Position numbers and translations under genes: made by a program. A DNA stretch of 52,949 nucleotides from Polyangiaceae bacterium (GTDB taxonomy: Bacteria; Myxococcota_A; Polyangia; Polyangiales; Polyangiaceae): contig JAXLYP010000017.1 of the NCBI GenBank assembly GCA_046351395.1, positions 193,508 to 246,456 on the forward strand, given 5' to 3'. Shown here piece after piece: positions 5,155-21,719 of the stretch. The first letter of the stretch is position 1; every line of letters begins with the position of its first letter. A model generated the notes under the pieces. The model did no database searches, was not told where the DNA came from, and was given only the letters and a program-made list of their open reading frames with translations.

Positions 5155-5511
5155 ATGTCGGCTGCACGAAGGAGCTCGCTCGCTGCGGCGCTCACGCTCG
5201 CCGTGGTCCACGCGAACGAGGCGAACGCCGAGGAGCCGTTCCCGATCATTTCGCTCCGCGACGCGACGGTCGGCGTCGGTTCGACGGGAGCGCCCGCAGG
5301 GTGGATCGCGCTGCCGACGCTCGCGCTCTCGCCCTCGGGCGGGTCGAGCCTGCGCCCCGTTCTCGAGATCGACGCGATCGACGTCCAGCGCGGCGCCGTG
5401 GTCCCGATCCTTCGCCTCGAGCTGAAGCTCCCCGTCGCGGACTTCGTGCTCGACTGGAGCCCCGACCCCGCCCTCGGGACTCACGCCCGCCTCCGCGTGT
5501 CCCTGAATTGA
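5155..5511 (+). CDS. Small secreted protein, unknown function
   Basis: ATG 5155 is preceded by GAGGAGG (5142-5148). Signal peptide MSAARRSSLAAALTLAVVHANEANA. Non-repetitive 118-aa product. Confidence 0.6.
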   Translation: MSAARRSSLAAALTLAVVHANEANAEEPFPIISLRDATVGVGSTGAPAGWIALPTLALSPSGGSSLRPVLEIDAIDVQRGAVVPILRLELKLPVADFVLDWSPDPALGTHARLRVSLN

Positions 5512-5647
5512 CCGCTCGCCGCTCCGCCGCGCTGAATTTCGCGCCCGCCCCTCGGAGCGTCGTTCGCAAACCTCGGAATTTCGACCTCCCGACCAGCACG
5601 AAAGCCGCGAGAGGGATTTCATTCCGAGCTCGTCACAACGCGCACCG

Positions 5648-6859
5648 ATGCGACTCCGAAGCGCGCTCCTCCCCGCCTTGGGTGTATTGTCTGTCGCGTG
5701 TGGGGGCGGCGCCTCACCTCGTGTGCAGGAGCCGAAGCCGACTGGGCAGTGGCGGGGATCATCGACTGGGCAGTGGACGGGATCCCCGACCGGTGTGCCG
5801 TGGGGTGGCTCCATCGTCGCGGGCGGCCTTGCGATCCTGCGGAGCGGCGCGTGTCCGCTCACGGAGATCGCGCCGGGGCAGTGGGCCCAAGCGGCGTGCG
5901 CGCCCATCGTCCAGTTCAAGAACGCGCTGCCCTATCGGGCGCCACCTTTCGTGGCGAGCGCGCTCCCCGCCTATGTAGACCACCGCGCCTCGGGGCTCGA
6001 GGGCCCCGTGAAGAACCAACAGAACGTGGGCGCGTGCGGCGCCTTCTCCGTCACGACCGCGATGGAGAACGCGCTCCGCAAGCAAGGCCGGCAGGACGTC
6101 CTCTCGGCGCTCCATTACTACGTGAAGTACGGCACGGTCGCCGGCACCGGCGAGAACGGCGACGCGATCACCACGGACGCCGTCTGGCCGTACGACCCCG
6201 TGAAGGCATGCCTCTTGTCGCCCGACGAGGGCGGGGACACGTGCGATCAGGACTTCGGCGTCGTGCGGGGCGGCGGTCGCGGCGATCCGCGGTTGCGCGC
6301 CGAGCAGGCGAACGCAGACAGTCGCGGGCTCGTGCGGCTCGACCGCGCGTGGAGCATCGATCCCCGGGACGTAGACGCCATCGCGGCGATCCTCGCCGCC
6401 GGCGACGACGTCGACGCGACCTTCGCGTTCGATCGGGATGCGTGGAGCTACCGGGGGATCCAGAGCGGCGTCTTCAGCCACTACCAGGGCCCCAAGGACT
6501 ATGGTCATGGCGTCGTCCTCGCGGGGTATCGCTGGGTGAACGGAGAGCGCCAGTTCCTCATCCACAACAGCTGGGGCGCCGACTGGGCGGAGAGCGGCTA
6601 TGCGTGGATGGCGGAGAGCGACGTCCGCGCGAACCTTTGCTCGGCCTACAAGATCGATCTCGCCGAAGCGGGGACGCCGCGCCGGCCCGAGGAGACGGCG
6701 CACTATTGTCCGGGCGGGCTCCCTCCCATCGGCAACCAATGTATCCCCCTCCCGCAAGCCTCGACCGCGTGTCCGCCGGGCACGATCGGCCTTCCGGGTC
6801 TTTGTCTGCCCACCGGGGGCATCAATCCCCTCGGAGACCTCGCGCCAGGTGCGCCGTGA
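5648..6859 (+). CDS. Papain-like (peptidase C1 family) cysteine protease lipoprotein
   Basis: Lipobox LGVLSVAC. Catalytic-Cys region VKNQQNVGACGAFSV, His region YGHGVVLAGY, and NSWGADWAESGYAWM (Asn-Ser-Trp). Confidence 0.8.
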   Translation: MRLRSALLPALGVLSVACGGGASPRVQEPKPTGQWRGSSTGQWTGSPTGVPWGGSIVAGGLAILRSGACPLTEIAPGQWAQAACAPIVQFKNALPYRAPPFVASALPAYVDHRASGLEGPVKNQQNVGACGAFSVTTAMENALRKQGRQDVLSALHYYVKYGTVAGTGENGDAITTDAVWPYDPVKACLLSPDEGGDTCDQDFGVVRGGGRGDPRLRAEQANADSRGLVRLDRAWSIDPRDVDAIAAILAAGDDVDATFAFDRDAWSYRGIQSGVFSHYQGPKDYGHGVVLAGYRWVNGERQFLIHNSWGADWAESGYAWMAESDVRANLCSAYKIDLAEAGTPRRPEETAHYCPGGLPPIGNQCIPLPQASTACPPGTIGLPGLCLPTGGINPLGDLAPGAP

Positions 6860-7703
6860 GCTCGGTCGCGACGCGCGTGTGGAGCTCGAGCACGGTGAAC
6901 CAATCGATGAGCTCGATGCGGAGCGCGCTCACGGCCGACGCGGCCCGCGCCGTGTGCGCGCGGGGGACCTCCGCGAGCGCATCGAGGAACCCCATGTCCG
7001 TCCCCGCTCCGACGGTCGCGCGCTCGCCGCGCGCGGTCTCGCACTCGACGAGCCCCGCGGTGACGCGGATCCAGTGGTTCGCGACATCTCCCGCGCTCCA
7101 GAGGACGTCGCCTCGCTGAAACCGCACGTCCGTGGACGCGCTCGCGATCTCCGCGAGGCCCTCCACGTTCGCGCGCGCGATGGGCGATCTCCGGAGCTGG
7201 ATGACCCGCTCCACGACCGTCAGCTCCTCGTCCCGAAACGTGCCGTGCTCCGGCGGATCGGAGCGATTGGGCAATGGCCCGCGCTCCGCGAGGAGGTCCC
7301 GCGCGAGGCCCCGCAGCACGAAGCGCTGGAGCGCGAAATCCCGTTGGAGCGCGATCCGGACCGCGTCTCCGGGGATCTCGAGCGCGAGCGTCCGTGCCTC
7401 CGTCGTCGCGCTCAGGTGATCGCGCTCCGTGAGGAGCGCGGTGAACCCGAGCGCGCGCTGGCTCTCCACGCGGCCGACCAGGGTGCCTTCGTGCTCCACG
7501 CGCACGCTCCCCTCGAGCACGTAGAGCACGGACGTGATCGGATCGGTCGCGCGCCAGATCACCGCGCGCGGCCGAAACCGCCGGTAGCGGGAGCGCTCCG
7601 CCATGAGCAGGAGAGTGTCCACGCTGACCGATCGAAGATCGGGCATCGAGCCGAGGAGGCGGGCGCGCGCCTCGACGCTCGCGAGCTCGGGCTCAGCTTG
7701 CAT
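6822..7703 (-). CDS. Protein with two cyclic-nucleotide-binding (cNMP) domains
   Basis: Two repeats of a CAP/cNMP beta-roll pattern (…VIWRATDPITSVLYVLEGSVRVEHEG…; …VLWSAGDVANHWIRVTAGLVECE…). The start overlaps the upstream gene's end by 11 nt. Confidence 0.7.
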   Translation of the reverse strand: MQAEPELASVEARARLLGSMPDLRSVSVDTLLLMAERSRYRRFRPRAVIWRATDPITSVLYVLEGSVRVEHEGTLVGRVESQRALGFTALLTERDHLSATTEARTLALEIPGDAVRIALQRDFALQRFVLRGLARDLLAERGPLPNRSDPPEHGTFRDEELTVVERVIQLRRSPIARANVEGLAEIASASTDVRFQRGDVLWSAGDVANHWIRVTAGLVECETARGERATVGAGTDMGFLDALAEVPRAHTARAASAVSALRIELIDWFTVLELHTRVATELTAHLARGLRGD

Positions 7704-10515
7704 GCGGAGTGTCTCGTGGTGCAGAAGGGAACAGCGACGTCGAGGACGGAATCGAGGCTCGGCGCGTCACCTCCGGCGCCTCGGGTTCGGCCGCGCGATC
7801 GGGAGCTCCAGCGAGGAGGGCGCGGGCGCGCGAGAAGTCGGTCACGTCCGGCTCCTCCCTACAGAGCTCCTCGATCCGCGGGAGCTGACTCGTCATCCCG
7901 AGCTCCGCCGCGTGATAGGCAGCGAACTTGCGGAGGATCGCGCTCGAGCTCCCCAGCATCTGCGCGATCGCCGTCTCGTAGTCGAGATCCACGGATGCAT
8001 GGAACTCCTTCCCGCGCGTGCGTCGCTCGACGTCGTCGACGTCATCGACGAGCCCGATGACGGCGTCGCGCAGCGGATTCTTGAGGACGATGTGGATGAG
8101 CTCGACGGCGGTCGCGCGGTGCTCCTTCCCGCCCCGCTCGATGCTCGTGAAGATCGCGTCGATCTCCTCGTTCGGGTTGAGCAGCGCCAGCAGCCGGAAC
8201 ACGCGACCCACCATGTGTCGCTGCTTGTCTCGCAGCAAATCCACGAGCAGGCCGTGCCCGACCGTCGCTCGGCGTGGGTCCTCCTCCCGCCCGCGCCGGA
8301 GCGCGACGAACCGATCGAAGGACCGGTAGGCGCGGGCGACCGTGCGCTGGATCTCCTCCCCGAGGAGGCGCTCGTCGAGGCGCGTCTCGGGCCGCGCGAC
8401 GACGATCTGTCCGAGCGCGAGGATCGAGCGATACCGCACCATCCCATCGGGCTCCTGTCCGAGGTTCGCGAGCAGGATCTCGGGCGCCTCGGGCGAGTCG
8501 ATGTCCGCGAAGAGGCTCGGCACGAGCCTCCGCACCGCCCGCGGGCGATCCCGATCGCGGAGCGCGCGGACGATCGCGCCCGCGCCCGCGGGGCCCGCGG
8601 CGCTCAGCGCGAGGCGGACGTCCGCGCCCACCTGACTGTCTGCGAGCAGGTCGACCAGGGTGTTCGCGGACGTCTCGGTCGCGAGCCCGCCGAGCGCCGC
8701 GATCGCCGCGCGGCGGACGTCGAGCTCGCGCGCGCGCGTGAGCTCGACGATCTCGGGCTCGAAGCGGGTCGCCTTGCGCCAGCCGACGACCTCGGCCAGG
8801 AGGCGCCGGCTCTCCACGCTGCCCTCCGAGACGATCCGCCCGAGCTCGTGGTGAGCCTCTTCCGCCTCCATCATGGAGAACGCAGCCATCGTCGTGAGGA
8901 TCGCCGCGCGGATGTCCGGCGAGGTCTCCCGCGCGAGCTGCTCTCTCCACCGCGTCGCGTCCGGCGCGAGCACCGCGCGAGCGGCCATCGCCTCGGCGCG
9001 GACGCGGATGGAGGGGTGGCGATCCAAGTGGGTGAGCGCGTGGAGCGCGACCTTCCGACCGCGCACGCCGAAGATCCGGAGCGCGGTCACGACGACGGTC
9101 TCCGACGGGTGATACAGGATGAGCCCCGGGATGACGTGGGCCTTCCCCTCCCGATCCAAGATCCGTAGCGAAGACACGACCGTGCTCTCCGCTTCGCTCT
9201 CGAGCGACTCGAGGAGCGACTCGAGGGAGGCCATGTCGAGCCGCATGAGCGCGCCCGCGAGCCGCCTCCGACCGGACGCGAGGGCGTCCTTGAAGAGCTG
9301 CGCGTAGTCGCCTCGGAGCCATGTCGCGAGGACGACCGCGCCCGCGGCCGTGACGACGAGGAGGACGGCGAGCCATCGCGGTGGCAGCTCGGTCGCCACC
9401 CCGACGAGGATGACGACCGAGCCCACCATCTGGGCGCCCCGTTGACCGAGCGCGTCCATGAAGCTCTTGGCGACCGTCCGCGGACCGTCCTCGAGGGGCA
9501 CGAGCAGGAGCTCCGCGGCCGTGCGGTGCACGCTGAAGCGCATGCTGCCGTCCACGGCCTTCGTGATCACGGCGGGCGCGAGCGTGCCCGTGATCGCGAC
9601 GCCGAGGCCCCCGGCGACGAGCCCGAACGGCAGCACCGCGAACACCAACGGGAGAGGCAAGCGCGCGACGAGCGATCGGACCGCGAACACCTGAACGCAG
9701 ACCGAGATCACGTTCAGGACCACGTTCACGCGGCCGAACACGCGCGCGAGCTGGTCGTGCGCGAAGTGGGCGGTGATCTGCGACTTGAAGATGAAGTCCG
9801 AGATCGTGACGGCGATCGTGATGAGGCCGCAGACCGCGACCACCCGTCGGATGTAGGGGTGGCGAAGGGCCGTGCCGAGGCGCTCGCCGAGCGTCCCGTC
9901 GCGCCCGTCGTGCTCGCCGTCGCGCGCGCGTTCGTCGAGGCCGCCGCTCGAGAACAGCATCGGCATCCAGGCGGCGCCGAAGAACAGCACGCCCGCGAAG
10001 AGGGAGAGGTTCGCCGGCGCGACCCACGTGACGAGCCCGACCGCGCCGCTGCCGAGGATCGCGCCGAGCCCGGCTCCGAGCCCGATCATCCCGTAGAGCC
10101 GTTTGGCCTGGCGAATCGAGAAGAGCCCTCCAACGAGGGACCAGAAATGGATGAGGACAATCGTCGAGAGGACGCCCGACCAGATGTAGAAGACATAGAG
10201 CCCGACCTCACCCAGGCTCGGCAGCGCACGGGAGAGCGCGATCGTCCCGAGCGACGAGGCGACCGTCCAGCCGATCAGCACGCGCCGCGGCGTCGTGCGC
10301 CGGAACACGGCTTGGGCGCGCGTCGCGACGAGCGTCGCGGCGGCGAGCGCGACGTACACCCAAGGGAGTCGGCTCGTCGGGATGTGGGCGAGGAACATCG
10401 CGTCGCGCGTCGCCTCGAGGATGCTGTGGCCGGCCACGAAGACGAACAGGAAGACAAAGGCGGTGATCGCATCCCGCCGCTCCGATCGCCGCACCGGGAA
10501 GAGCCGCCGCAGCAC
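7693..10515 (-). CDS. TLC-family (ATP/ADP-translocase-like, Npt-type) membrane transporter fused to a C-terminal HEAT-repeat domain
   Basis: 940 aa. The N-terminal ~430 aa are multi-TM and carry the family-typical block HFWSLVGGLFSIRQAKRLYGMIGLGAGLGAILGS (compare Rickettsia Tlc FWQFANQIT..AKRFYSMFGL). The C-terminal half has HEAT-like repeats (…RRAAIAALGGLATETSANTLVDLLAD…). GTG start is 1 nt after the upstream stop. Confidence 0.8.
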   Translation of the reverse strand: MLRRLFPVRRSERRDAITAFVFLFVFVAGHSILEATRDAMFLAHIPTSRLPWVYVALAAATLVATRAQAVFRRTTPRRVLIGWTVASSLGTIALSRALPSLGEVGLYVFYIWSGVLSTIVLIHFWSLVGGLFSIRQAKRLYGMIGLGAGLGAILGSGAVGLVTWVAPANLSLFAGVLFFGAAWMPMLFSSGGLDERARDGEHDGRDGTLGERLGTALRHPYIRRVVAVCGLITIAVTISDFIFKSQITAHFAHDQLARVFGRVNVVLNVISVCVQVFAVRSLVARLPLPLVFAVLPFGLVAGGLGVAITGTLAPAVITKAVDGSMRFSVHRTAAELLLVPLEDGPRTVAKSFMDALGQRGAQMVGSVVILVGVATELPPRWLAVLLVVTAAGAVVLATWLRGDYAQLFKDALASGRRRLAGALMRLDMASLESLLESLESEAESTVVSSLRILDREGKAHVIPGLILYHPSETVVVTALRIFGVRGRKVALHALTHLDRHPSIRVRAEAMAARAVLAPDATRWREQLARETSPDIRAAILTTMAAFSMMEAEEAHHELGRIVSEGSVESRRLLAEVVGWRKATRFEPEIVELTRARELDVRRAAIAALGGLATETSANTLVDLLADSQVGADVRLALSAAGPAGAGAIVRALRDRDRPRAVRRLVPSLFADIDSPEAPEILLANLGQEPDGMVRYRSILALGQIVVARPETRLDERLLGEEIQRTVARAYRSFDRFVALRRGREEDPRRATVGHGLLVDLLRDKQRHMVGRVFRLLALLNPNEEIDAIFTSIERGGKEHRATAVELIHIVLKNPLRDAVIGLVDDVDDVERRTRGKEFHASVDLDYETAIAQMLGSSSAILRKFAAYHAAELGMTSQLPRIEELCREEPDVTDFSRARALLAGAPDRAAEPEAPEVTRRASIPSSTSLFPSAPRDTPHAS

Positions 10516-10516
10516 G

Positions 10517-11965
10517 TCAGAACCCCGTCGTCCCGCCGACGAGGAACCGGACGCTCTCGGGCTCGCCGCCCTCCGCGAACGGCTTCGTCCCGAAGCCCAA
10601 GAGGAGGTTCAACGCGTGGTCACGGTGATTCGGCGATTGGAACCCCCCGACGAACGAGAACCGGAGTCGCTCGAGTTCGAAGTCCTCGAAGTCGCGCCCG
10701 AACACGTTCCCCACCTGCGCGCGGAGCGTGGCGTCGACGAACGACCAGATGGGCCAGGTGTACGTGACGCTCGCCGCGGCGGACGTCTCGCCGAGGAGGC
10801 GCCCGGGGGTGAAGCCGAGGAGGGGCTCGTCGTCGGGCACGCGATCGGTCCGACCGCTCCCGATGAGCTCCGTGAACGGCACGCGCGCCGTGCTCGAGAA
10901 GGGCTCGATCGCGCGGACGTCCACGAGGAGCCCGAGCACGCGCCGCGTCCCCGTGACGTCGATGAACCCGCCCACGGACCCGCCCACCTGCGCCCACTCG
11001 ACGTGCGACCCGACGTCGCTCCCGAGCTCGGCGTGCGCGTCGAGCCCGACCCCGGAGCCCGGCCCTGGGCGCGGCTGTCGCGAGTCGAGCACGACGCGCC
11101 CACCGACCTTCACCGCGGTGTATCCGGCGAACCCGTCGGGGAGGGGATAGAGCCCTCGAGCGACCGCGCGGGAGATGGGCAGCGTAGGACACTCGTGTGG
11201 CCATACCGGGCAGCTCTCGTCGGAGAACGAGTGGTGCCGGACGACGGCCCAAGCCTCCACGAAATTGGCCTTTCGCGGCTCCACGTGGGTCCGAATGCCG
11301 CCTCCGACCGAGCGCTGCTCGAACCTCGACTCGTCCGCGTAGCGAGACCGGTACCCCACACCGTAGAACAGGTAGTCGGCGCGGACGACCCCGTCCGCCT
11401 CGAGCTGCAGGTTGGAGCGCACGCGGTGAGAGCCGTCGGGTTCGACCTCGACGTCGAGCGGGACGCGGTCGACCACGCGAGCTGCGAAGTACCTCTCGCC
11501 CCCCGTCGCGACCGACGCGCGGAGTTGATTGTCTGTCACGAGGAAGTCGTCGTAGAAGTGGTAGAGGCCGACGCTCGGACGAAAACCGAACTCGTAGAAC
11601 GCCGTCGGGATGAGGCCCACGTTGTGGTGAGGGCCGAACGTGAAGAAGTCGGTCACCTTCGCCACGATGCCCTCGCGGTCGATCACCGTGGTGATCGCGC
11701 CGAGGGGGCGCCGGATGACGTAGTCCGAGACCACGTAGAGCGGCGCGAAGAGGACGCGGGGGATCCAGAGCGCGCCCTCCGCCGCGGTCGTCTCGCGCGG
11801 TCTGCCCTCGTAGTCCTGCGGTGGGCGCTTCTCTCCGGGCGGCCGGGATGGATCCTCGGGGAGCACGGCGGGGTGCTCGGGGACGTCCCCCCGCGCCGGG
11901 GGCGCCGCCGCGAGGGCAGCGCCGAACGCGAAGACCATGGCACCGAGCGCCTTGGGCGAGTTCAT
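10517..11965 (-). CDS. Outer-membrane beta-barrel protein (paralog of 23156-24616)
   Basis: Signal peptide MNSPKALGAMVFAFGAALAAAPPARG. Alternating beta-strand patterns. C-terminal ...RFLVGGTTGF* (terminal Phe OMP signature). The start overlaps the upstream stop (ATGA). Confidence 0.75.
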   Translation of the reverse strand: MNSPKALGAMVFAFGAALAAAPPARGDVPEHPAVLPEDPSRPPGEKRPPQDYEGRPRETTAAEGALWIPRVLFAPLYVVSDYVIRRPLGAITTVIDREGIVAKVTDFFTFGPHHNVGLIPTAFYEFGFRPSVGLYHFYDDFLVTDNQLRASVATGGERYFAARVVDRVPLDVEVEPDGSHRVRSNLQLEADGVVRADYLFYGVGYRSRYADESRFEQRSVGGGIRTHVEPRKANFVEAWAVVRHHSFSDESCPVWPHECPTLPISRAVARGLYPLPDGFAGYTAVKVGGRVVLDSRQPRPGPGSGVGLDAHAELGSDVGSHVEWAQVGGSVGGFIDVTGTRRVLGLLVDVRAIEPFSSTARVPFTELIGSGRTDRVPDDEPLLGFTPGRLLGETSAAASVTYTWPIWSFVDATLRAQVGNVFGRDFEDFELERLRFSFVGGFQSPNHRDHALNLLLGFGTKPFAEGGEPESVRFLVGGTTGF

Positions 11966-13779
11966 TGGAGGGCCGCGCCCGGCTCGTCGGGCCTCTGGAT
12001 GGCGACCATCTTGAAGTGGGAGGACGCCCCGAGATCGTACAAATGAACGCGCAGCGGACCCCGCGCCGCGCCGTTCGAGACGTCGAGCACCGCGTATCGA
12101 AGGGGGTGATCGTCGGGCAGCGAGCGGTCGTCCACGACGCGCGGTAGATCCACGCAGACCGTCGCATCGTCGCCGAGGCTGACGGGGAGGGCCTTTCGCT
12201 GGTCGAGGTCGAGCCCCGTCCGGAGCTCGGCGGCGTACGTGAACCGCGTCCTCGGCCAGGTGGTCGTCTTGTGCGCGAGATCGGTCGCGCAGACGCGGTC
12301 GCCCTCGACGGTCACGTCCGCCAGCGGGGATACGACGCTGAAATACCGCGTGAGGATCTCGTCCCTTCGTTGGATGAGTGTCCGCGTGAGGAACTCCGTC
12401 GCGCGAGGGTCCGTGTAGTCGCCGACCCGCACCGCGGCCGCGATGTTCGCGTCGGTGAAGCGCGACAGGATGCGCGCCGCCCACGCGCCGTCCTCCTCCG
12501 TCATGCGAGCGAACGCGGGGTTCGGGTAGCCGCCCTTCCAGTCCTCGGGCACGAAGTCCGGCCTGAAATAGTCGAACATCGGGAGCTCGGTGTTCGCGAC
12601 GGGCCGGTCCCATGGGCGCTCGAACGAGCCGAGCGTCAGGAGGTCGATCGCCACGTCCTCCGGATCGAAGTAGTAGCTGTGGTTGATCCTCCGGTTCCAG
12701 CTCTCCCATTGCCAATGGCTGCCAAAGCAGTCCCCGAGGTCGATGTACCAATGTGTCGTCCGCCCCGGAGAGGAGTCCTTCGACTCGGGGTCCACGGCGT
12801 CCCAGGTGGTCATCGTGTTTTGCTCGCGCGAATCGAAGTGCCCGAGCCACGCGGCCATGAGCCGCGCTCCGCGGAGATCCCTTCGGTCCTCGTGAGGGAT
12901 GATGTCGTTGGGATCGTCTTCTCGCGTCTCCTCGTACCGGAAGGGGCCGATCGCGCGTCCTGGGAGCCACCGCGACGCCACCATTCGTACGAGCCCACCT
13001 CGCTTCTGTGCGCTGTCGAGGATCGCCTGGAGCTTCCCGTCGTCGAACGGCATTTTGGTGCCCGTATTGTCTGCGTAATCGAGCCCGGGCTCGAGCCTGA
13101 GCCAGGACTTGTCGACGTAGACAATCGTGTCGCACGCGGTCCACCAGCCCGCGGCGTGGTAGAGCCTGGACGCGATGGATGTCGCCCCGGTCGCCTTCTC
13201 GCCTTCGCCCTCGGCGTCTGCCTTCAGCATGAACTTGCCGACGCCCTCGATCTCGACCCGAAAGCCCGGGTTCGCGCCGTTCGCCTTGCCCATGTCGACG
13301 CGCCAGGCGCCCGGTTCGTGCGGGGCCGTGGCGATCGTCTTGTGGCCGCAGCTCCCGCGCGTGATCTCCTCGTCGGTCATCGGCCTCACGCCGATGCGGT
13401 TCGTGAACCAGCTCGAGTCGGGCACCTCGTCGACCGCGTTCACGTTCCGCGCAGCGAAGCCGACGTCCGCGGCGAAGAACTTCACGATGGGCCGGAAGAT
13501 GGTCTTGTCGGCGACGTCCCATAGGAACGGGGACTCGTACTCTTCGGGCCGACAGAGTTGCTTCTTCGCGTCCTTCGGATCGGGGCGACACGGCACTCGG
13601 ACCGCCCGCAGATCCTCGTCGATCCAGACCGGGTCGCGGAGCGGGAACCGCCGGATGCCACCGCACCCCGCGACCGAGGTCGCCGCGCCGCTCGCCAGCG
13701 CCGCGCCGATCACGACTCGGCATGCGGCTCGCAGAATCTTTACGGCCCCCGCCTCGCGATGAGCCCACCGAATCGCCAT
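11962..13779 (-). CDS. Lipoprotein with atypical kinase-like (PKL/PI3K/CotH-like) signature
   Basis: Lipobox ATSVAGC. Candidate nucleotide-binding Lys (GKFMLKAD), catalytic-loop-like LMAAWLGHFDSREQNTM and DFG-like WYIDLGDCFG. 605 aa, non-repetitive, high GC3. Confidence 0.6.
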   Translation of the reverse strand: MAIRWAHREAGAVKILRAACRVVIGAALASGAATSVAGCGGIRRFPLRDPVWIDEDLRAVRVPCRPDPKDAKKQLCRPEEYESPFLWDVADKTIFRPIVKFFAADVGFAARNVNAVDEVPDSSWFTNRIGVRPMTDEEITRGSCGHKTIATAPHEPGAWRVDMGKANGANPGFRVEIEGVGKFMLKADAEGEGEKATGATSIASRLYHAAGWWTACDTIVYVDKSWLRLEPGLDYADNTGTKMPFDDGKLQAILDSAQKRGGLVRMVASRWLPGRAIGPFRYEETREDDPNDIIPHEDRRDLRGARLMAAWLGHFDSREQNTMTTWDAVDPESKDSSPGRTTHWYIDLGDCFGSHWQWESWNRRINHSYYFDPEDVAIDLLTLGSFERPWDRPVANTELPMFDYFRPDFVPEDWKGGYPNPAFARMTEEDGAWAARILSRFTDANIAAAVRVGDYTDPRATEFLTRTLIQRRDEILTRYFSVVSPLADVTVEGDRVCATDLAHKTTTWPRTRFTYAAELRTGLDLDQRKALPVSLGDDATVCVDLPRVVDDRSLPDDHPLRYAVLDVSNGAARGPLRVHLYDLGASSHFKMVAIQRPDEPGAALQ

Positions 13780-14649
13780 CCGATCGCCGTGCGCGCGGCC
13801 GAGCTCCTCGGCTCGAGTCCGCTGCTCGTGCTCGCGGGCGTGGGCGTGTTCTCGATCGGGCTCGTCCTCGTTCTCGTCGTCCTCGCGAGGTGGATGAGCG
13901 CGCGGGGCCTCGGCTGGCGGAAGGCCCTCTTTCGACGCGCCGCGCGCGCTGTCGGCGCCGCCCCGAGCGCGCGCGCGAGGCTCTCGCGGCTCGTCCGGCT
14001 CGAGTACGAGCTCGTCCACCTGGGACTTGGGCTCGCGCTCCTCGCCGGGCTGGTCGTGTTCGTGGCGCTCGCGGTCTCCGTCGTCGACGACGGCGCAGTC
14101 GCGGCGTTCGACGAGTCGCTCGCGCGTGCGGTCCACCGATCGACGCCGCCCGAGCTCGTGCGCGTCATGCTCGTCGCGACCTCGCTCGGCGGCGGTGAGG
14201 CCGTCCTCGTCGTCGCGGTGGTCGTCGCGGTGGGGCTCCTGGTGCGGCGGCGATGGCACCTCGCCATCGGCTGGATCACGGCGGAGGCGGGCGCGGGCCT
14301 CTTCAACGCGCTCCTCAAGTCGCTCTATCGGCGCGCGCGTCCCACGCTCGACGATCCGTTCACGAGCGCATCCGGGTGGAGCTTCCCGAGCGGACACTCC
14401 ATGGGGACGATCGTCACCGCTGGGATGCTCGCTTATGTGTTCTCCCGGTTCTACCCGCCGGGGTGGCCGCGCTTCGTGGCCGTCTTCCTCGCGACGCTGT
14501 GGACGCTCGTCATTGGGTTCAGCCGCGTGTGCCTCGGCGTCCACTACGCGAGCGACGTGCTCGGAGGGTTCGCCGCGGGCGCGGTGTGGCTCGTCGTTTG
14601 CGTTTCGGGCCTCGAGGTGGCGTTGCGCCCCAATCGCTCGGCCGTTTAG
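13759..14649 (+). CDS. PAP2 family membrane phosphatase (canonical motifs)
   Basis: KSLYRRARP (KX6RP), FPSGHS (PSGH), SRVCLGVHYASD (SRX5HX3D). Multiple TM helices. The ATG 13759 start would overlap the divergent gene's start by 21 nt; an alternative GTG lies ~13786. Confidence 0.85.
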   Translation: MSPPNRHPIAVRAAELLGSSPLLVLAGVGVFSIGLVLVLVVLARWMSARGLGWRKALFRRAARAVGAAPSARARLSRLVRLEYELVHLGLGLALLAGLVVFVALAVSVVDDGAVAAFDESLARAVHRSTPPELVRVMLVATSLGGGEAVLVVAVVVAVGLLVRRRWHLAIGWITAEAGAGLFNALLKSLYRRARPTLDDPFTSASGWSFPSGHSMGTIVTAGMLAYVFSRFYPPGWPRFVAVFLATLWTLVIGFSRVCLGVHYASDVLGGFAAGAVWLVVCVSGLEVALRPNRSAV

Positions 14650-14773: not shown

Positions 14774-15790
14774 ATGCCAACCGTCCTGTCGCAACCGCGT
14801 CGTACCGCGCCCGCATTCGCAGCACGTTCGATGTTCTTCGGTGTCTTGATCAATGGGATCGTCCCTTCGTCCGCGCTCGCAGATCCGCAAGTGGACACAG
14901 CGCCGAGCGCTCCGACGGAGAAGGCAACCGCCGCGCCCACGCCGCTCGCCACGAAGAGCGCCGCGGAGAAGAAGCCGGACTCGCTGGATTGGGATCCGCG
15001 TTGGCCGGAGGTGAAACCCTACGAGTACATCCTCACCGGTGTGTTCGCGCTCGCAGCGATCGGTGGACAGGCGATCCCCGGCGGCCCGAGGTGGACGGGG
15101 CACAACGCGTTCGACGACGCGGGCCGCGAGGCGTTGCTCTTGCCGGACTTCGAGGATCAGGAGCGCGCGAAGGACTTCAGCGACGTGGGCCTCGTGATCC
15201 TCGTGAACCAAGCGCTGATCGACAATCTCTTCGTCACGTGGTGGGCGCGTGATCACCCGAAGACCGCATGGCAGCTGTCCGTGATCGACACCGAGACGCT
15301 GGCGTTCAGTATCGGCGTGGACGCGCTCGTCGCCGGCGCGACGGGCCGCGAGCGCCCGTACGTCGAAGCGCTGTGCGATCAGGAGGACCACAAGAATCGC
15401 GGCTACTGCGACGGGAGCAACCGCTACCGAAGCTTCTTCAGCGGACACTCCACGGCCGCGTTCACCCTGGCGGGGCTCACGTGCATCCATCACGCGGAGC
15501 TCGGTATTTACGGCCACCCCGTCGCTGACGCGTTCGCGTGCGGCGGCGCGATGGCGACGGCGACGGGCGTCGCGCTCCTCCGTGTCGCCTCTGATCAGCA
15601 CGATCTCTCGGACGTGCTCGTCGGGGCAGTGTGGGGCACCGCGACCGGGGTCACGCTGCCGTGGCTCCTCCACTACCGGGGCGGGGCGAAGGTCGAAGAG
15701 AAGAAGCCGGACCCGCATGCCGCCGTCGAGGCCCCGCCGCCGGGCGTGGTCGTCACGCCGAGCGGCGCGTACGTCATGGGAGCGTTCTGA
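14774..15790 (+). CDS. Secreted PAP2-like phosphatase (paralog of 16722-17639)
   Basis: The N-terminus has RR followed by a hydrophobic signal (…QPRRTAPAFAARSMFFGVLINGIVPSSALA). Motifs GRERPY, FFSGHS, RVASDQHDLSD. Alternative start at ATG 14831. Confidence 0.75.
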   Translation: MPTVLSQPRRTAPAFAARSMFFGVLINGIVPSSALADPQVDTAPSAPTEKATAAPTPLATKSAAEKKPDSLDWDPRWPEVKPYEYILTGVFALAAIGGQAIPGGPRWTGHNAFDDAGREALLLPDFEDQERAKDFSDVGLVILVNQALIDNLFVTWWARDHPKTAWQLSVIDTETLAFSIGVDALVAGATGRERPYVEALCDQEDHKNRGYCDGSNRYRSFFSGHSTAAFTLAGLTCIHHAELGIYGHPVADAFACGGAMATATGVALLRVASDQHDLSDVLVGAVWGTATGVTLPWLLHYRGGAKVEEKKPDPHAAVEAPPPGVVVTPSGAYVMGAF

Positions 15791-15793: not shown

Positions 15794-16690
15794 ATGGGGT
15801 CCTCGAGAGAACGCCGATGGAGCGTCGCCGCGCGATCGATCTTCGTGGTCGTGATCGCCGTTCTCACCCGAGAGGCGCGCGGTCAAGTGCTCGACCTCCC
15901 GGACGCGACGACGAACCCGACCGCGCCACCGCGGGACGTGGATCAGAAGCTCCCCTATTGGGAGAGAGGAGAGATCCGGCCATTCACGTCGGCGGTGTTC
16001 GACGTCGGCGGGTTCTTCGTGCGCCCCGAGTTGAACGTCGGCTACGGGCAGCCGCACTTCAACTGGATCGGCGCGGAGATCTTCAGCAAGCTCACGCTCG
16101 GCGGCGTGACGCTCGGAGCGGGCGTCCACGGTCAGATCCCGAACGTCGACGCGCGCCTCGGCGTGCGGTCGTTCCGGTCGGCGGATCAACGCCTGCTCCA
16201 GCGCAAGAACGTGTATCGGGAGTCGGACCCGACGATCCTCGATCAGCCCGCCTCGGCCTACGACAGCGTCGACGCGGATCTCGCGGTGAACGTCCGCGCG
16301 CTCGGAGGATCCGTCAGCTTGGAGACGCGCGCGCTCGCGCTCTTCCAGGTCCCCGACGGATATGACGTCTTCGAGGACGTGTTCCGCGTCGTGGTCCGAC
16401 CGCCGCTCGTCTGGCAGGCGAAATTGACGTATGTCGTCTTCGCGGGCTGGGACGATCGCCTCGCGCTCGGGTTCACGACGGAGCTCCTCGGCGCTCCAGC
16501 GAGAGACAACCTCGTCTTCCGCGTCGGCCCGGTGCTCACCGTCGCGTTGACGGAGCACCTCCAGGCGATCGGCGGCGGCGCCTTCGCGATCCTGTACCAC
16601 GACGATCTCGGCCTCAGCGGGTCGGATCTCGGGCAGATCGGTCTGCGCTACCGTTGGGCGTCGGGAGAGCCTTACCCCGACTTCCCGTGA
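15794..16690 (+). CDS. Secreted protein, possibly beta-barrel; unknown function
   Basis: Starts 3 nt after the preceding stop. Signal-like SIFVVVIAVLTREARG. Alternating-residue strands (e.g. LALGFTTELLG, LVFRVGPVLTVAL). High GC3. Confidence 0.55.
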   Translation: MGSSRERRWSVAARSIFVVVIAVLTREARGQVLDLPDATTNPTAPPRDVDQKLPYWERGEIRPFTSAVFDVGGFFVRPELNVGYGQPHFNWIGAEIFSKLTLGGVTLGAGVHGQIPNVDARLGVRSFRSADQRLLQRKNVYRESDPTILDQPASAYDSVDADLAVNVRALGGSVSLETRALALFQVPDGYDVFEDVFRVVVRPPLVWQAKLTYVVFAGWDDRLALGFTTELLGAPARDNLVFRVGPVLTVALTEHLQAIGGGAFAILYHDDLGLSGSDLGQIGLRYRWASGEPYPDFP

Positions 16691-16721: not shown

Positions 16722-17639
16722 TCAGAACTGCCCGCCCCAGGAGAGCTGCACGGGCGGCCGCGCGGTGACGAGCGGCGCGGACGCCGCCGCGCTCGTGTTC
16801 GGGCCGTCGACGGTCTGCGTGTAGTGCAGGGCGAGGGGGACCGCGAGGCCTACCCCGTACCCGAAGAGGAAGCCGCTGATCGCGTCGCTCATCCAGTGCC
16901 GATCGGAGATGACGCGCATCCCGGCGATGGTGACGGCGAGGGCCGTCGAGCCGACGCACGCGACGACGTCGGGCGCGCCGCCCCCGTAGAGCGGGACATA
17001 GGCGTGGTGGGCGCACGTCAGCCCCGCGCCGACCGCGCTCATCGTCGCGTGACCGCTGAACCAGCTCGCGTTGACGCCGAAGGAGCCACAGTCGTACGCC
17101 CAGCCTTTGTCTGTTTGGCATCCGATCCCGGCTGGGCGCTCCCGCGCGGCGAGCCGGTGGTTCACGCGCATGACGAGATACGCGATCCCGTAGGCCTCGA
17201 GGTTCATCGCCGTCAGCTGCTGGAGCATATCGAGGTTCTCGTCGATCGCCGGGACGAGGACTCCATCGATGAGGACGGGGTAGGCGGCGCTCACGGCGAG
17301 CAAGACGTCGCTCGCGATCTGAATGCCGCGTCGATCCTTAAGCCGCGGCATCGCGACGGCGTCGCGGGCGATCTCGTCGAACAGGATGGGCCCGATCCAC
17401 CGGGGCTCGATGGGCTGTTCGGTCCCGAACTCGATGATGCCCGCGCCGGTGATCGACAGGGCGGTGAGCGTGTACTCGCCCCACACGACGCGCGGGTGGG
17501 ACTCGTCCCAGTGCAGGCGGTGCTCGTCCTTGGCCTGCGCCGCTGCGCGCTCGCATGGCGCGAAAGCTGCGAGCGCCGCGCCCAGAAGGATCGCGTGTTG
17601 GTGTCTGTGCAGCGAGGAGTTCACCAGGGGATCCGTCAC
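16722..17639 (-). CDS. Secreted PAP2-like phosphatase (paralog of 14774-15790)
   Basis: The GTG start overlaps the upstream stop (GTGA). Motifs ARERPA, WFSGHA, RVISDRHWMSD. Ends ...QLSWGGQF*. Confidence 0.75.
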   Translation of the reverse strand: MTDPLVNSSLHRHQHAILLGAALAAFAPCERAAAQAKDEHRLHWDESHPRVVWGEYTLTALSITGAGIIEFGTEQPIEPRWIGPILFDEIARDAVAMPRLKDRRGIQIASDVLLAVSAAYPVLIDGVLVPAIDENLDMLQQLTAMNLEAYGIAYLVMRVNHRLAARERPAGIGCQTDKGWAYDCGSFGVNASWFSGHATMSAVGAGLTCAHHAYVPLYGGGAPDVVACVGSTALAVTIAGMRVISDRHWMSDAISGFLFGYGVGLAVPLALHYTQTVDGPNTSAAASAPLVTARPPVQLSWGGQF

Positions 17640-18190
17640 TCGGGTGAGGGGGTCGACGTCGAGGGCTTGGGCGGTTCGGGCGGGGGCGGCGGTGTGGGCT
17701 CTCGCAGCGAGGGCACCGCGGACGCGCTCGATCCTGGCGTGGGCTGCTCCTTCGTCCCCCCCTTGTCGATCGGCGGGCCCTTCTCCGTCCCGTTCGGATC
17801 CTGTTCGGAGGGCTCGAGGTGCTCCTTCGCGTCACGGACAAAGCCGCTCGTGGGGACGTATTTGTAGGTCGCCTTTTGTCCACAGCCGCTGACGCCGAAC
17901 GTCGTCGCGTCGAGCTCGGTGACGTCGAGCGCCGTGTTGCCGCAGGTGAGGTCGAACGCCGCGCGCTCGCGCAGCGAGACCCAGTCGTCCTTCACGGGGT
18001 CGTGGATGATGACGTCCTTCTTCCCGCAGCCCGTGACGATCCGGATCGGGCCGGCGTGGTTCGTCTCGATGTCGTCCTCCTCGCACTCGAGCGTGTGCCG
18101 AGCCTTCGGCATGATCGATGGCCAGAAGCACGCCCCGATCAGCGTCCCCGAGACCACGGAGAGTGTGACGGCAAGCCTCGATGCGCTCAT
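17636..18190 (-). CDS. Lipoprotein with Pro-rich C-terminal tail, unknown function
   Basis: ATG 18190. Lipobox SGTLIGAC. Cys-containing globular part, then a ...TPPPPPEPPKPSTSTPSPE* tail. Confidence 0.65.
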   Translation of the reverse strand: MSASRLAVTLSVVSGTLIGACFWPSIMPKARHTLECEEDDIETNHAGPIRIVTGCGKKDVIIHDPVKDDWVSLRERAAFDLTCGNTALDVTELDATTFGVSGCGQKATYKYVPTSGFVRDAKEHLEPSEQDPNGTEKGPPIDKGGTKEQPTPGSSASAVPSLREPTPPPPPEPPKPSTSTPSPE

Positions 18191-18280
18191 GAGCTCCGGC
18201 CTCGTCCGAGGGACGTGAAGGTGCGCGGAGGGACCGCGCCGTGAACGAGCGCCCGTGGGGCGTTCATCTCGAAGAGCCAC

Positions 18281-18956
18281 TCACGAGCGCGATCCAAGGA
18301 CCGGACCATCGCCGAGGTCGTCCAAGTGGGAGGTGTCGGCGAGGCGCGTGGGGGTCCAGGCGAGCCCCGCGCTGTCGAGCCGGAATAGACTGGCCACGGG
18401 GCATGGAATGTCCTCCTCCGTGCCCGTGAGACCCTTCACGATCCCGAGGATGGCGACCGCGTGCGTCACGAGAAGGAGTGATCCGTCGTAGGTCGCGGCG
18501 AGGGCACGAGCGGTGAGGGCCGAGCGCGCGAACGCCTCCTCGATCGTCTCGAGCGATGGGGGCACCGAGCGGCGTGTGGCTCCGGTCCACCTCGACCCGC
18601 TCGAGGCGCGCTCGGAGCTCGTCCGCGGACAGCATGTCTCCTAGCCCCGGCCCCCAGTCGGGCCGCTGGAGCTCCGCGAGCCCCGGCTCGAGCGCCACGC
18701 CGCCTCCGATCACGCGCGCGACCTCGGCGGCGGTCTGGACGCAGCGGAGATAGGGGGACGACACGATCCGCGTGATGCCCGACGTCCCGAGGCGTGTCGC
18801 CACGGCTCGGGCCTCCTCGAGGCCGCGCGCGGACAATCCGGGATCGTGGGGCCGCGGGGCGGTGCGCCCCCACTCGAGGTCACTGAAATCGGCGCGGTCA
18901 CCGTGCCGAACCAGCCAAAGCGTTCGGGCGCGGACGGGCTCTGTGGCTGAGGTCAT
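18281..18956 (-). pseudogene. Histidine phosphatase (phosphoglycerate-mutase-like) family gene split by a frameshift
   Basis: The N-terminal half (ATG 18956) has LWLVRHGDRADF (RHG motif). The C-terminal half, in another frame (18281..18565), has ETIEEAFARSALTARALAATYDGSLLLVTHAVAILG. The frames meet at a G5/C5 run (18558-18562). Confidence 0.7.
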
Positions 18957-19543
18957 CGACGCTCCACGGGCACACAGCGTGCTTGGTTGGTATTCGATGC
19001 ACGTCCTCCGCCATGCGGTGATGGGTGCGAGCATGGCGCTCGCCGGCTGCGCCTCGTCGCCCATGCCCGCGTGGCCCGTGTCGACCCCTGCGGAGCTCTG
19101 TCAGGACCCGACCCTCGGCCCCTCCGACTTCTGCATGCCCGCCGCGCGCATCGAGGTGTGGCTCCGCGAGGGCGACTTTCGGATCACGAACGTGGCGTTC
19201 TCGAGCTCGGGCGTGACGCGCCCCTACAAACTCAGGCTCGAGCTCGCGTCGGGGCTGACCATCAACGCGAAGTTCAAGCGCGCGCCGGACGATCTCGAGG
19301 CGTTCAACAACAGCCCGCGGCGCGAGCTCGCCGCCTATGAGATCCAGAAGCTGTTCTTGGACCCGGACGACTACGTCGTCCCTCCGACGGTGCTCGCCTG
19401 CATCCCGGCGCGCACCGAGCTGATGCCGGAGCTCGAGCCGCACCCGAGGGCGACGTGCGCGATCGGCGTACTCGCGTATTGGGTGGAGGGCCTCACGGAC
19501 CAGGGGGTCGTCGACCCCGCGCGGTGGGCGGCGGACGCGGGGT

Positions 19544-19551
19544 ACCGCGAC
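19544..19551. repeat. Target-site duplication (left copy), ACCGCGAC
   Basis: An identical 8-mer directly flanks both IS ends (19544-19551 and 21071-21078). Confidence 0.85.
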
Positions 19552-21070
19552 GTACCCGTTCACCCGTCGGACGGGATCAGCGTGGGGACTTCCAGTTGAG
19601 CTGGGTCGCAAGCTGCAAGGAGGAAGCCGAGGATCGACCTTCGCTGGAGGCGAAGCGAATGGATCACGGTCATGACTCGCTGGGCGAACAGGCATCCTCG
19701 CTCGCTCTGGGAGCCGTAAGAGACCTTGCGCCAAAGCACGAACGGCGCAGCGCGCGCTCGGCATGATTATCAGGGATCCACTTCAGGCTCGAAGGCGAAC
19801 GTGAGGAGGGCGGCCTTGTGTTCGAGTATGTCGAGGCAGGAGCCGGAGACGCCGCGCAGGCGCAGCCCCGCGCCGCGTTCGAGGAGTCCCTCGAACGCCA
19901 TCTGCGCTGGTCGCCATCCTCTGGTACTTGGCGCGTGAGGGTGCCGTCCCGCACCTTGTGCCAGGCGGCAGCACAAGGTGAGAGAGCAGAGAAGGTCCTC
20001 CCCGAGTTGGCGTCCCGCGTCCTTGCGTTCGGAGAAGGCGACGAACTTCCTGATGAGGTGCGCCCAGCAGATCTGCCGCCGCCCTGATGGCCCAGAAGCC
20101 GAACTGCGAGCCTCGGTCCGTCACCAAGGATCCCGGAGAGGGCCCATGAGCGCGGCGATTGTCCGCGACAAGCATCGGCGGTGACGAAGAACACAGCGAC
20201 GGACCGCGTTGCGATCGTCCAGAGCGCGGCATACAGGCCGGCGACTCGCCAGGTGCTTCCGTCCACGTGCTTCACGGGGTGCGCGCGGACGTAGCAGGCC
20301 GCGGCATCCACCGGGGCAGCGATAGCGTCGTTGATCCGCTCCTCGGCCTCGCTGAGGGCGCCGAGCGAGACTGGGATGCCGAAGATCTCGGAGAGGTACT
20401 CCCGGCAACTGTCGCGCCACTGTCCGCGCGCCGAGGAACAGCCGATGAACGCGAGCAGCCGGGGACCGAACATGTGGCTCGGGACGCTGCCGGCAGACTC
20501 GCCCACGTCGTCTTCCCGCAGTCCTTGCAACAGGCCCCGCCCATGACGATCTCGTGAACGTCCGGCTTGATCCTTCGGGGATGTCGACGACCTGATGCAG
20601 GCGCGGGTCGATCCCCTCCGCCGCGAGATTCCGTCCGCCGCATCCTCGACATCTCTTCGGCGCCAGCTTCGTCCGACGGGTCACCTTCTCGGGCGGGAAC
20701 AGCACGCGGGTGTTCGGCTTGTGTCCGGGCTGGCCGCCGCGACTTCGACCGGTCGGCTTCTTCTCGGGTCGAGTCCCAGGTAGATCGGTCGACGGAGGCT
20801 TGCCCGACTCCTCGAGTTCTGCCCCAGCTGCTGCTCGAGGTCGGCGACTCGCACCTTGAGCTGCGCGATCTCCGCGTCCTGCCCGCGATGATCGGTGTCG
20901 CGCTCCGCGACCATGGCAAGCAGCGCCGCGACCTGGGCTTCCAACTTCGCCAGACGCTTGCCGACCGAGGTCACCGACCCACTCGATCATGCGGCGATCC
21001 TCGTGTCGATCCCCGATCGCGTATGATCACATATGATCATGTATGGCTGCTCGACCCGGTGAACGGGTAC
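19552..21070 (-). mobile_element. IS66-family insertion sequence (single-ORF type), 1519 bp, transposase degenerate
   Basis: Perfect 13-bp terminal inverted repeats GTACCCGTTCACC (19552-19564; reverse complement at 21058-21070). The 8-bp TSD is typical of IS66. Internal IS66 transposase motifs are present. Confidence 0.8.
19560..20974 (-). pseudogene. IS66-family transposase, multiply frameshifted
   Basis: Family-typical segments are spread over all three frames: leucine-zipper LAKLEAQVAALLAMV…LEQQLGQNS; GKPPSTD…GGQPGHKPNTR…CRGCGG; FGPRLLAFIG…IFGIPVSLGALSEAE…HVDGSTW; LVTDRGSQF; QICWAHLIRKF; PDNHAERALRR; FVLWRKVSYGSQSERG. Confidence 0.7.
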
Positions 21071-21078: not shown

Positions 21079-21719
21079 AACCTCGGGAACTTGAACGTGC
21101 TGACGGCGCTCATCGGTCACCAAGACGACATTGGAGTGAACTTCTACCGGTCGAAGGACGCGGCGCGCCCGCGGCTATTGTCTGTCGACAATGGGCTCGC
21201 GTTCGGCGCGATGGGAGACAATCCCATTCGGTTCTTCAGCAGCGCATGGAGCGACGTGCGAGTCCCGCTCCTGCCTTCGAAGACGGTGGACAGGCTCGGC
21301 TCGGTCGACCGGGCGCGCCTCGAGCCCCTCGGCGTGGTCGCGCAGATGCGCCTCGAGGGCGGCGCGTTCCATCCCATCCCACGGACGCCGACGCTCGATC
21401 CGAACCAGGCCGTGCGCTGGAACGGGGACGACGTCCAGCTCGGGCTCACCGCCGAGGAGATCACGGACGTCGATGTCCGGCTGGCACGGCTCCTCGGCGC
21501 GATCGACTCCGAGGAGGTCCAGCGCGGTCGTCCCCGCGAATCGAAGTGATCGCTCGCTTCGAGGGGAGATCGCTGCCGACGATCGACGTCGCCGAGGAGG
21601 GCGGTGCGCTCGCCACCTCGGCGTGGGTCGAAAGTGCCTCGACTTGGCACCCAAATGCCACATCGAGCCGCCCTGCGAGCCCTCCTCGGGCTGGTGCGCG
21701 AATCGCATGAGCACCAAGG

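Follow-up and report, generated by a model that had tools for sequence, protein, structure and literature searches.

The window analysed here is a 52,949-nt stretch of DNA from a bacterium of the Polyangiaceae (assembly GCA_046351395.1, contig JAXLYP010000017.1, positions 193,508 to 246,456) with a GC content of approximately 70%. On its minus strand lies a tightly packed operon of four genes, which encode a lipoprotein with a predicted kinase fold (K1), a putative outer-membrane barrel of the Omp85 superfamily (O1), a putative transporter of the NTT/TLC type joined to HEAT repeats (N) and a protein with two cyclic nucleotide monophosphate (cNMP)-binding-fold domains (C). In many related genomes, K1 is accompanied by a barrel of the same type and by a short NTT-like transporter, in arrangements that differ in gene order and strand, and the operon may be one version of an envelope module in which an exported kinase is supplied with nucleotide.

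The four open reading frames (ORFs; Table 1) and their three junctions are as described in a first-pass annotation of this DNA: K1 is joined to O1 by an ATGA overlap at 11962-11965, O1 and N are separated by a 1-nt gap at 10516, and N and C overlap by 11 nt (7693-7703). The GC content at third codon positions (0.82-0.96) matches exactly the frames of all four ORFs. The limits of the operon are set by a convergent papain-like gene (5648-6859, plus strand) and a divergent PAP2 gene (approximately 13759-14649, plus strand). Scans for promoters and terminators were uninformative in DNA of such high GC content, and the Rfam and tRNA scans returned no match in the whole window, which therefore offers no riboswitch as a clue to a ligand. 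The start of K1 is uncertain, since translation from the ATG at 13779 yields a protein of 605 residues with a normal lipoprotein signal peptide, while the internal GTG selected by NCBI yields one of 583 residues.

K1 is predicted to be an exported kinase-fold lipoprotein

K1 is a member of an extensive family, of which 3260 representatives are found at 50% clustering (E-values up to 0.001), and its gene is 100% identical to that of a hypothetical protein in a Polyangiaceae metagenome-assembled genome. Sequence and profile searches of Pfam, NCBIfam and the PDB, which included the named kinase families Fam20C, PI3_PI4_kinase, HipA_C and CotH, gave no match to K1; a sub-threshold HipA_2 match was found in one distant relative. 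An AlphaFold2 model of K1 calculated from 52 homologues (pLDDT 85.5, pTM 0.86) has the bilobal kinase fold of the class that comprises CtkA, PI4KII, Fam20, HipA and CotH, with CtkA as the top match, and in a separate Foldseek search with the model, Golgi casein kinase, Fam20A and PI4KIIalpha ranked highest. The motifs FMLKAD, LGHFDSREQN and IDLGDCFG, on the strength of which the protein had initially been likened to protein kinases, PI3K and CotH, are present in K1, and their key residues are invariant among the 52 homologues. The invariant positions (K186/D188, H314-F-D316-x-R-E-Q-N321 and D347-x-x-D350-x-F-G) follow one another in the order expected of a kinase, the catalytic residues of K1, and of the K2 protein described below, being assigned by sequence motif and not by superposition on a solved kinase.

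The lipobox of K1 (SVAG preceding Cys39) conforms to the lipobox pattern in 43 of the 52 family members, and Cys39 is itself invariant, as are six further cysteine residues. Together, the kinase fold, the invariant catalytic positions, the lipobox and the seven invariant cysteines point to an active extracytoplasmic enzyme; K1 is very probably an exported, lipid-anchored and catalytically competent protein with the modelled kinase fold.

A direct connection between the K1 and barrel families is provided by a 1000-residue protein from the representative library (P0271), in which a K1-type kinase lipoprotein (residues 6-568) is fused to the N-terminal side of an Omp85-type barrel. This fusion is apparently genuine, because the lipobox is kept and no internal signal peptide was found. 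Two other candidate fusions were rejected as gene-call artefacts that show adjacency only: that of K1 with a PAP2 protein (P0281), which has an out-of-frame Arg-rich stretch inside it, and that of a transporter with a barrel (P0219), which has an internal signal peptide.

O1 and its paralogue O2 are probable Omp85-type barrels

O1 itself has no Pfam match. Within its family, 26 of the 55 members match PF01103 (best E-value 1e-10), none of the 55 matches a POTRA-family Pfam entry, and comparison of the family profile with the loop-6 'RGF' region of BamA gives an E-value of 0.045. At this loop the family consensus is MRGF, with LRGF in the O1 paralogue O2 and LLGF in O1. The barrel, of approximately 400 residues, is preceded by some 60-100 residues, and neither O1 nor K1 gave a match to a POTRA or TPS domain. 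Profile matches of this kind suggest that O1 is, at the superfamily level, a divergent member of the Omp85 superfamily, which supports and narrows the earlier description of the gene as encoding a beta-barrel outer-membrane protein. The family resembles BamA, TamA, TpsB and PlpD in the PF01103 matches of about half of its members, in the loop-6 consensus and in the size of the barrel. It differs from them in the lack of a detected POTRA domain, in the position of O1 itself below the Pfam thresholds with LGF in place of RGF, and in the partner of O1, a lipoprotein with a kinase fold in place of a TpsA or patatin passenger.

Conservation of the K1 neighbourhood

With each species represented by one genome, a scan identified 162 relatives of K1, of which 80 loci were retained and searched with the proteins of the window; all 80 are from Polyangia. 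Partners were counted within 10 kb of K1 in the 53 species-level loci that have flanks of 5 kb or more in both directions. An NTT-like transporter of any type is present in 42 of these loci, an O-type barrel in 40 (at a median gap of 47 nt) and a short transporter of the M type, which is represented in the window by M2, in 40. Less frequent are the N-type transporter (21 loci), the PAP2-family protein PAP2b (19), HEAT repeats (16), the 298-residue secreted protein U (13) and the cyclic nucleotide-binding domain (cNBD; 12).

The proximity of these genes was assessed in the 43 related loci whose flanks extend 10 kb from K1 in either direction. The nearest barrel is no more than 5 kb from K1 in all 31 loci that have one, as is the nearest transporter in 33 of 35, and the arrangement is therefore not a matter of chance. 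The co-localisation of transporter, barrel and lipoprotein genes in relatives, which the first-pass annotation had set as a test of its reading, is thereby strongly upheld; its choice of the gene for TLC and HEAT domains as the partner of the kinase is not, as the constant core consists of K1, an O-type barrel and a short NTT-like transporter, with N and C on the one hand, and PAP2b and U on the other, as frequent accessories. Furthermore, the order and strand of the partner genes vary among lineages, being K> <O M> in Sorangium, M>O>K>N>C in locus L003, M>O>K> <C<N in L061 and N>C>M>..P>U>K> in L008. The retention of linkage despite such rearrangement argues for selection.

The transporters N and M2 and the cNMP-binding-fold protein C

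N matches the TLC profile PF03219 with 32.3 bits (cut-off 21), over residues 106-158 only, and HEAT_2 with an E-value of 6e-12. Its sole match among solved structures in a phmmer search is Arabidopsis NTT1 (9j3j; E-value 5.8e-5, residues 108-408). M2 scores 60 bits against PF03219 (profile positions 148-487) and 61 bits against PF07690 (MFS_1), and its best PDB matches are the 'ADP,ATP carrier protein 1' chain of 9j3n (E-value 4.5e-10, residues 123-446) and NTT1 (5.6e-5), with E-values above 0.08 for other solved MFS proteins. The family link of N and M2 to nucleotide transport is, on these comparisons, a reasonable one.

Four residues of Arabidopsis NTT1, K155, E245, E385 and K527, are important for nucleotide transport, and K527 has been tied to the transport of triphosphates rather than diphosphates (PMC4256464). 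Our comparison covers the last three, which are found as E, E and K at positions 161, 301 and 443 of the 9j3j chain (each 84 below its native number), K155 being outside the aligned PDB fragment. Among 17 sequences of the N family, the E245 position is occupied by Gly in 12 and Ala in 5, the E385 position by Asp in 16 and the K527 position by Gln in all 17; N of the window reads G/D/Q. The M family has Gly, Glu and Asp at these positions in 35 of 35 sequences, as does M2 (G/E/D), and the NTT-like transporters of K2 loci have an acidic/acidic/Lys combination (D/D/K) in 14 of 22. N and M2 share with canonical TLC/NTT proteins (PF03219, TC 2.A.12), which are their only significant relatives of solved structure, approximately 12 transmembrane segments and an acidic residue at the E385 position, and differ from them in the replacement of E245 by Gly or Ala and of K527 by Gln (N) or Asp (M2). 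Since the organism is free-living, transport by N and M2 may be directed outward, in contrast to that by canonical NTTs. The frequent co-occurrence of N- and M-type transporters hints at distinct roles, for example export of a donor by one and import of spent nucleotide by the other, although this is speculation.

C matches PF00027 over two domains (E-value 1e-19, 70.7 bits), which agrees with its initial designation as a tandem cNMP protein but leaves its role as a cNMP sensor in doubt, since the phosphate-binding cassette is degenerate. In CAP and PKA the cassette has the consensus Gly-Glu ... Arg-Ser/Thr-Ala. In an alignment of 18 cluster-associated homologues of C, the conserved Glu is absent; Arg is missing from domain 1 and is represented in domain 2 only by PR-x-Y in a subset of the sequences. 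With a cassette that lacks Glu and for the most part Arg, the ligand of C may be other than cAMP or cGMP.

The pairing of N and C is not in itself new. The NTT-HEAT fusion has been described as a monophyletic, widespread and uncharacterised group, reported in Deltaproteobacteria among others, in which a cNBD gene is often located a few nucleotides downstream (Major, Embley & Williams 2017, PMC5381601). This is exactly the architecture of N and C, with an NTT-like transmembrane domain, C-terminal HEAT repeats and a cNBD gene immediately downstream, except that C has two cNBD domains and a degenerate cassette. A text search of that study found no mention of linkage to a kinase-fold lipoprotein, an Omp85 barrel, PAP2 proteins or a second, short NTT-like transporter. 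The statement in the first-pass annotation that no system of this composition has been described consequently holds for the link to K1 and O1, which is apparently new, and not for the N and C pair.

A second kinase-fold family, K2, shares the same partners

The genes of M2 and O2 (21720-24616), which are joined by a GTGA overlap, are located 8 kb from the four-gene operon and beside a further lipoprotein gene, K2, that is interrupted by an insertion sequence. The latter has perfect terminal inverted repeats of 13 nt (GTACCCGTTCACC), is flanked by an 8-bp target duplication (ACCGCGAC, at 19544-19551 and 21071-21078) and contains degenerate ORFs with a weak match to IS66 transposase. Its excision in silico restores an intact K2 ORF of 333 residues, with 69.5% identity to intact homologues from end to end; the NCBI annotation covers the N-terminal half only. 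The K2 lipobox (ALAG preceding the cysteine) conforms to the pattern in 30 of 62 family members, others, such as that of L088, having a plain signal peptide, and the motif residues of K2 are K95/K97, D206, N211 and D227-N-G. For K2/P0391 there is no Pfam or NCBIfam match, and the model of an intact homologue (pLDDT 91) has a Fam20/PI4KII-like fold. A search with the K1 profile hidden Markov model gave no match to K2, and hhalign comparison of the two families gave a probability of 17%, for an alignment confined to the catalytic loop and the DxG segment; on this basis we regard K1 and K2 as distinct families with a common fold.

In one metagenome contig (L088, ENA, 1924-10076), genes on a single strand encode, in order, a metallophosphatase-like lipoprotein, NTT-HEAT, cNBD, K2, an MFS/TLC transporter and a 246-residue secreted protein. 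In L087 the MFS/TLC gene begins 22 nt after K2, in L085 K2 faces a PAP2 gene, and in L086 it is followed by a metallophosphatase. Across the metagenome scan, an NTT-like gene is present in 18 of 43 K2 loci with at least 3 kb of flanking sequence, often 25-70 nt downstream. Two families of exported proteins, unrelated in sequence and both modelled with a kinase fold, thus share the same partners, and for this reason K2 provides independent support for the link between kinase and transporter. The 246-residue secreted protein of L088, which ends in ...MVRF, has a homologue that flanks K2 in L087 too.

PAP2 phosphatases and other genes adjacent to the operon

The four genes that were initially taken as a unit do constitute a tight operon, but the functional unit appears to extend to the adjacent PAP2 genes and to the second module. 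PAP2a has weak NCBIfam matches to undecaprenyl-diphosphatase and PgpB. Homologues of PAP2b are usually located just upstream of K1 on the same strand, and in the closest relatives of K1 the PAP2b and U families immediately precede it. The active sites of the PAP2 proteins presumably face the periplasm, as we assume from PgpB, LpxE and LpxT. PAP2b and PAP2c might conceivably be soluble enzymes of the class A acid phosphatase type.

Between PAP2c and a histidine-phosphatase ORF is the gene of a small predicted lipoprotein with the lipobox LIGAC, a Pro-rich C-terminal tail and no family match. The ORF itself matches the histidine-phosphatase family (His_Phos_1) in its first half only and may be a frameshifted gene, because its Arg-rich C-terminal half looks out of frame. 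On the other side of the operon, the gene of the papain-family (Peptidase_C1) lipoprotein overlaps C by 38 nt at its 3' end, and homologues of this protein are encoded approximately 9-10 kb from K1 in loci L063 and L064.

Table 1. Positions of the genes and other elements discussed in the text (numbering of the window).
Feature	Coordinates	Strand	Description	Remarks
Papain-family gene	5648..6859	+	Peptidase_C1 lipoprotein	convergent with C
C	6822..7703	-	cytoplasmic protein, two cNMP-binding-fold domains	293 aa
N	7693..10515	-	NTT/TLC-like domain of 12 transmembrane segments with cytoplasmic HEAT repeats	940 aa, GTG start
O1	10517..11965	-	putative Omp85-superfamily outer-membrane barrel, POTRA not detected	482 aa; signal peptide
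K1	11962..13779	-	lipoprotein, predicted atypical protein-kinase-like fold with C-terminal Ig/FN3-like sandwich	605 aa from ATG 13779
PAP2a	13759..14649	+	membrane PAP2 phosphatase, divergent from K1	PF01569 E 6e-21; start inferred at ATG 13759
PAP2b	14774..15790	+	PAP2-family protein, signal peptide	PF01569 E 9e-13
U	15794..16690	+	secreted 298-aa protein, signal peptide, no family match	travels with PAP2b and K1
PAP2c	16722..17639	-	third PAP2-family gene, PAP2b paralogue	PF01569 E 3e-9; 33% identity to PAP2b
Small lipoprotein gene	17636..18280	-	predicted lipoprotein	
Histidine-phosphatase ORF	18264..19064	-	His_Phos_1 match in first half	
K2, N-terminal part	19021..19551	+	Fam20/PI4KII-like lipoprotein gene (predicted fold), interrupted	
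Insertion sequence	19552..21070		splits K2, 1519 bp	13-nt inverted repeats, 8-bp target duplication
K2, C-terminal part	21079..21549	+		catalytic loop HxDxxxN, VDNGLAFG
M2	21720..23159	+	short NTT/TLC-like MFS transporter	479 aa
O2	23156..24616	+	O1 paralogue	62% identity; GTGA overlap with M2
Kinase/FGE-sulfatase gene	26076..27797	+	Ser/Thr protein kinase and FGE-sulfatase domains	

A possible extracytoplasmic phosphorylation system

The operon may be read, tentatively, as one arrangement of an envelope module conserved in Polyangia (Myxococcota). In this module, phosphorylation would take place outside the cytoplasm, NTT-type transporters would provide the nucleotide, and phosphatases facing the periplasm would counteract the kinase. 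Taken as a whole, we regard this model as the account to be preferred, while falling somewhat short of calling it probable. It is built upon the observed gene structure, modelled folds, conserved catalytic motifs, export signals and conserved gene neighbourhoods. From these it would assign to K1 an enzyme activity and a topology relative to the barrel, to the transporters a substrate and a direction, to C and the HEAT repeats a part in regulation, and to the phosphatases a role opposite to that of the kinase. K1 would be a periplasmic enzyme held by its lipid to the inner surface of the outer membrane, translationally coupled to O1 and probably docked on this barrel. Such a topology would be the simplest fit to P0271, a fusion protein whose chain runs from a lipid anchor to a barrel. 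Its substrate could be an envelope lipid, a glycan or a protein. N and M2 would carry nucleotide through the inner membrane, with the donor of the phosphate going out and the spent nucleotide possibly coming back, while the HEAT domain of N, together with C, would gate the flux through N from the cytoplasmic side. The phosphate added by K1 would be removed by PAP2 proteins or metallophosphatases facing the periplasm.

Several observations weigh against this model. ATP would escape through an outer membrane that contains general porins, and all of the structures are predictions. Within 10 kb of K1, 11 of the 53 loci have no transporter and five have none of the listed partners. NTT-HEAT and cNBD genes occur in only about a third of the loci and are not concentrated near K1, and many of the loci are from closely related Sorangium genomes, so that the raw counts overstate their independence. 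Module 2 is dispensable in this genome, since K2 has been inactivated by the insertion sequence. With respect to the transporters, the TLC match of N is limited to 53 residues, and the TIGR00769 scores of N (22 bits) and M2 (55 bits) are far below the cut-off of 387. As judged by the alignment, two of the three canonical NTT charged residues compared are replaced in both proteins, and the Lys linked to triphosphate transport is absent from both. ATP/ADP exchange can consequently not be assumed for N or M2. The identification of a TLC-type transporter in the first-pass annotation holds at the superfamily level, N being a remote member of the TLC/NTT group with HEAT repeats attached. In fact, the substrates of NTT proteins are generally not predictable from sequence (PMC4256464).

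The same properties of the transporters would also suit an explanation in which these proteins carried something other than a nucleotide, such as the substrate or product of the kinase, a phospho-compound or a lipid head-group precursor, with K1 employing another donor or serving as a non-catalytic binder. In addition to the replaced residues, which in M2 include a charge reversal from Lys to Asp, and the poor predictability of NTT substrates, this explanation is consistent with the similar scores of M2 on the generic MFS_1 and TLC profiles and with the abundance of phosphatases (PAP2, metallophosphatase, HAD) in the clusters. We consider it unlikely, though a serious competitor, because the full set of ATP-dependent kinase motifs is kept in both K1 and K2, no other PDB entries match N and M2 nearly as well as the solved NTTs do, the canonical residues are kept in many of the K2-adjacent transporters, and the characterised members of the NTT family all carry nucleotides or NAD (PMC5381601, PMC4256464).

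The remaining alternatives differ chiefly in the role given to the barrel. The close adjacency of K1 and the barrel genes, which overlap in the window, the autotransporter-like order of P0271, with K1 N-terminal to the barrel, and the annotation of the top fold match, CtkA, as a proinflammatory kinase in its PDB entry would all suit a K1 that is the passenger or cargo of an Omp85-type barrel (type V or two-partner-like). Such a protein would be displayed on the surface or released and would use external ATP to act on prey or matrix, the transporters being linked for other reasons such as salvage or signalling; CtkA is a secreted protein, and myxobacteria are predatory. This is improbable, as no POTRA or TPS domain was detected, the N-terminal lipobox and C-terminal barrel of P0271 would fit a periplasmic tether more simply, relatives of K2 associate with transporters in the absence of any barrel, and the linkage to transporters and phosphatases is left unexplained. 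Scavenging, with entry of nucleotide via the barrel, binding by the lipoprotein and import by the NTT-like transporter, would place one component in each envelope compartment of an organism from a predatory group. To our knowledge, however, Omp85 barrels do not act as nutrient channels, K1 conserves catalytic and not merely binding residues, the co-encoded phosphatases, which we take to face the periplasm, would destroy the cargo, and N and M2 lack the triphosphate-linked Lys. Scavenging is therefore decidedly improbable, even though the characterised NTTs import nucleotides (PMC5381601, PMC4256464). That the neighbouring genes are functionally unrelated and merely syntenic in a closely related group is hardly credible: the K1 loci do all belong to one class and many to one genus, but their proximity survives extensive rearrangement of order and strand, the sequence-unrelated K2 family shows the same association in other samples, the genes are translationally coupled, and a fusion of K1 and barrel exists.

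Of the two readings put forward in the first-pass annotation, the supply of nucleotide to a periplasmic kinase is accordingly favoured, though unproven, and trans-envelope nucleotide scavenging fits less well, in view of the invariance of the catalytic residues, the presence of phosphatase genes in the clusters and the same link in another, sequence-unrelated family of secreted kinase-fold proteins.

Relation to known kinases and implications

The periplasm is usually treated as lacking ATP, with envelope machines importing energy mechanically or via inner-membrane ATPases. In eukaryotes, by analogy, the Fam20 kinases of the Golgi depend on ATP that is imported into the lumen. K1 and K2 differ from the eukaryotic Fam20 and type II phosphatidylinositol 4-kinases in having no detectable sequence-family membership (no Pfam match) and in being bacterial and lipid-anchored; K1 also has extra N-terminal and Ig-like domains. 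Among the prokaryotic proteins of related fold, HipA is cytoplasmic, CotH works in the mother cell and CtkA, from H. pylori, acts inside host cells, and we know of no description of any of the three in which a nucleotide transporter is dedicated to it or an Omp85 protein is its partner. Searches of the literature on NTT-HEAT proteins, periplasmic kinases, bacterial Fam20 proteins and periplasmic ATP found no described counterpart, and within the literature searched the coupling of an exported kinase-fold lipoprotein, an Omp85 barrel, an NTT-like transporter and phosphatases appears to be new.

The recurrence of this combination, as read from sequences and models, is a hint, though no proof, that a kinase outside the cytoplasm is supplied with nucleotide in some bacteria. 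With slightly more reserve than for the module itself, it may be proposed that in some Gram-negative bacteria envelope-anchored kinases resembling Fam20, PI4KII and CtkA are fed by nucleotide export through dedicated members of the NTT family, which would perhaps also take back the spent nucleotide, with periplasm-facing phosphatases reversing the mark. If so, the system would be a prokaryotic counterpart of the secretory kinases of the Golgi and an exception to the rule that no ATP-driven chemistry takes place in the periplasm. The coupling of a kinase fold to relatives of the ATP/ADP translocases makes the deliberate supply of nucleotide to an extracytoplasmic kinase directly testable. It would also provide the first functional context for the NTT-HEAT/cNBD proteins, which are also found in cyanobacteria, chlamydiae and oomycetes, and a context for the NTTs of free-living bacteria in general, for Omp85 barrels without a detected POTRA domain and for two large families of 'hypothetical' lipoproteins (K1 and K2). 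Should the substrate prove to be an envelope lipid or glycan, the system would represent a new kind of reversible envelope modification.

Other features of the window

Downstream of the second module, a plus-strand gene (Table 1) encodes a Ser/Thr protein kinase domain joined to an FGE-sulfatase (SUMF1-like) domain, with a zinc ribbon at the N terminus. In the region 42000-52000, the GC skew is +0.11 to +0.17 at 42-48 kb and -0.11 beyond 48 kb, and the cumulative skew reaches its maximum at approximately 48 kb.

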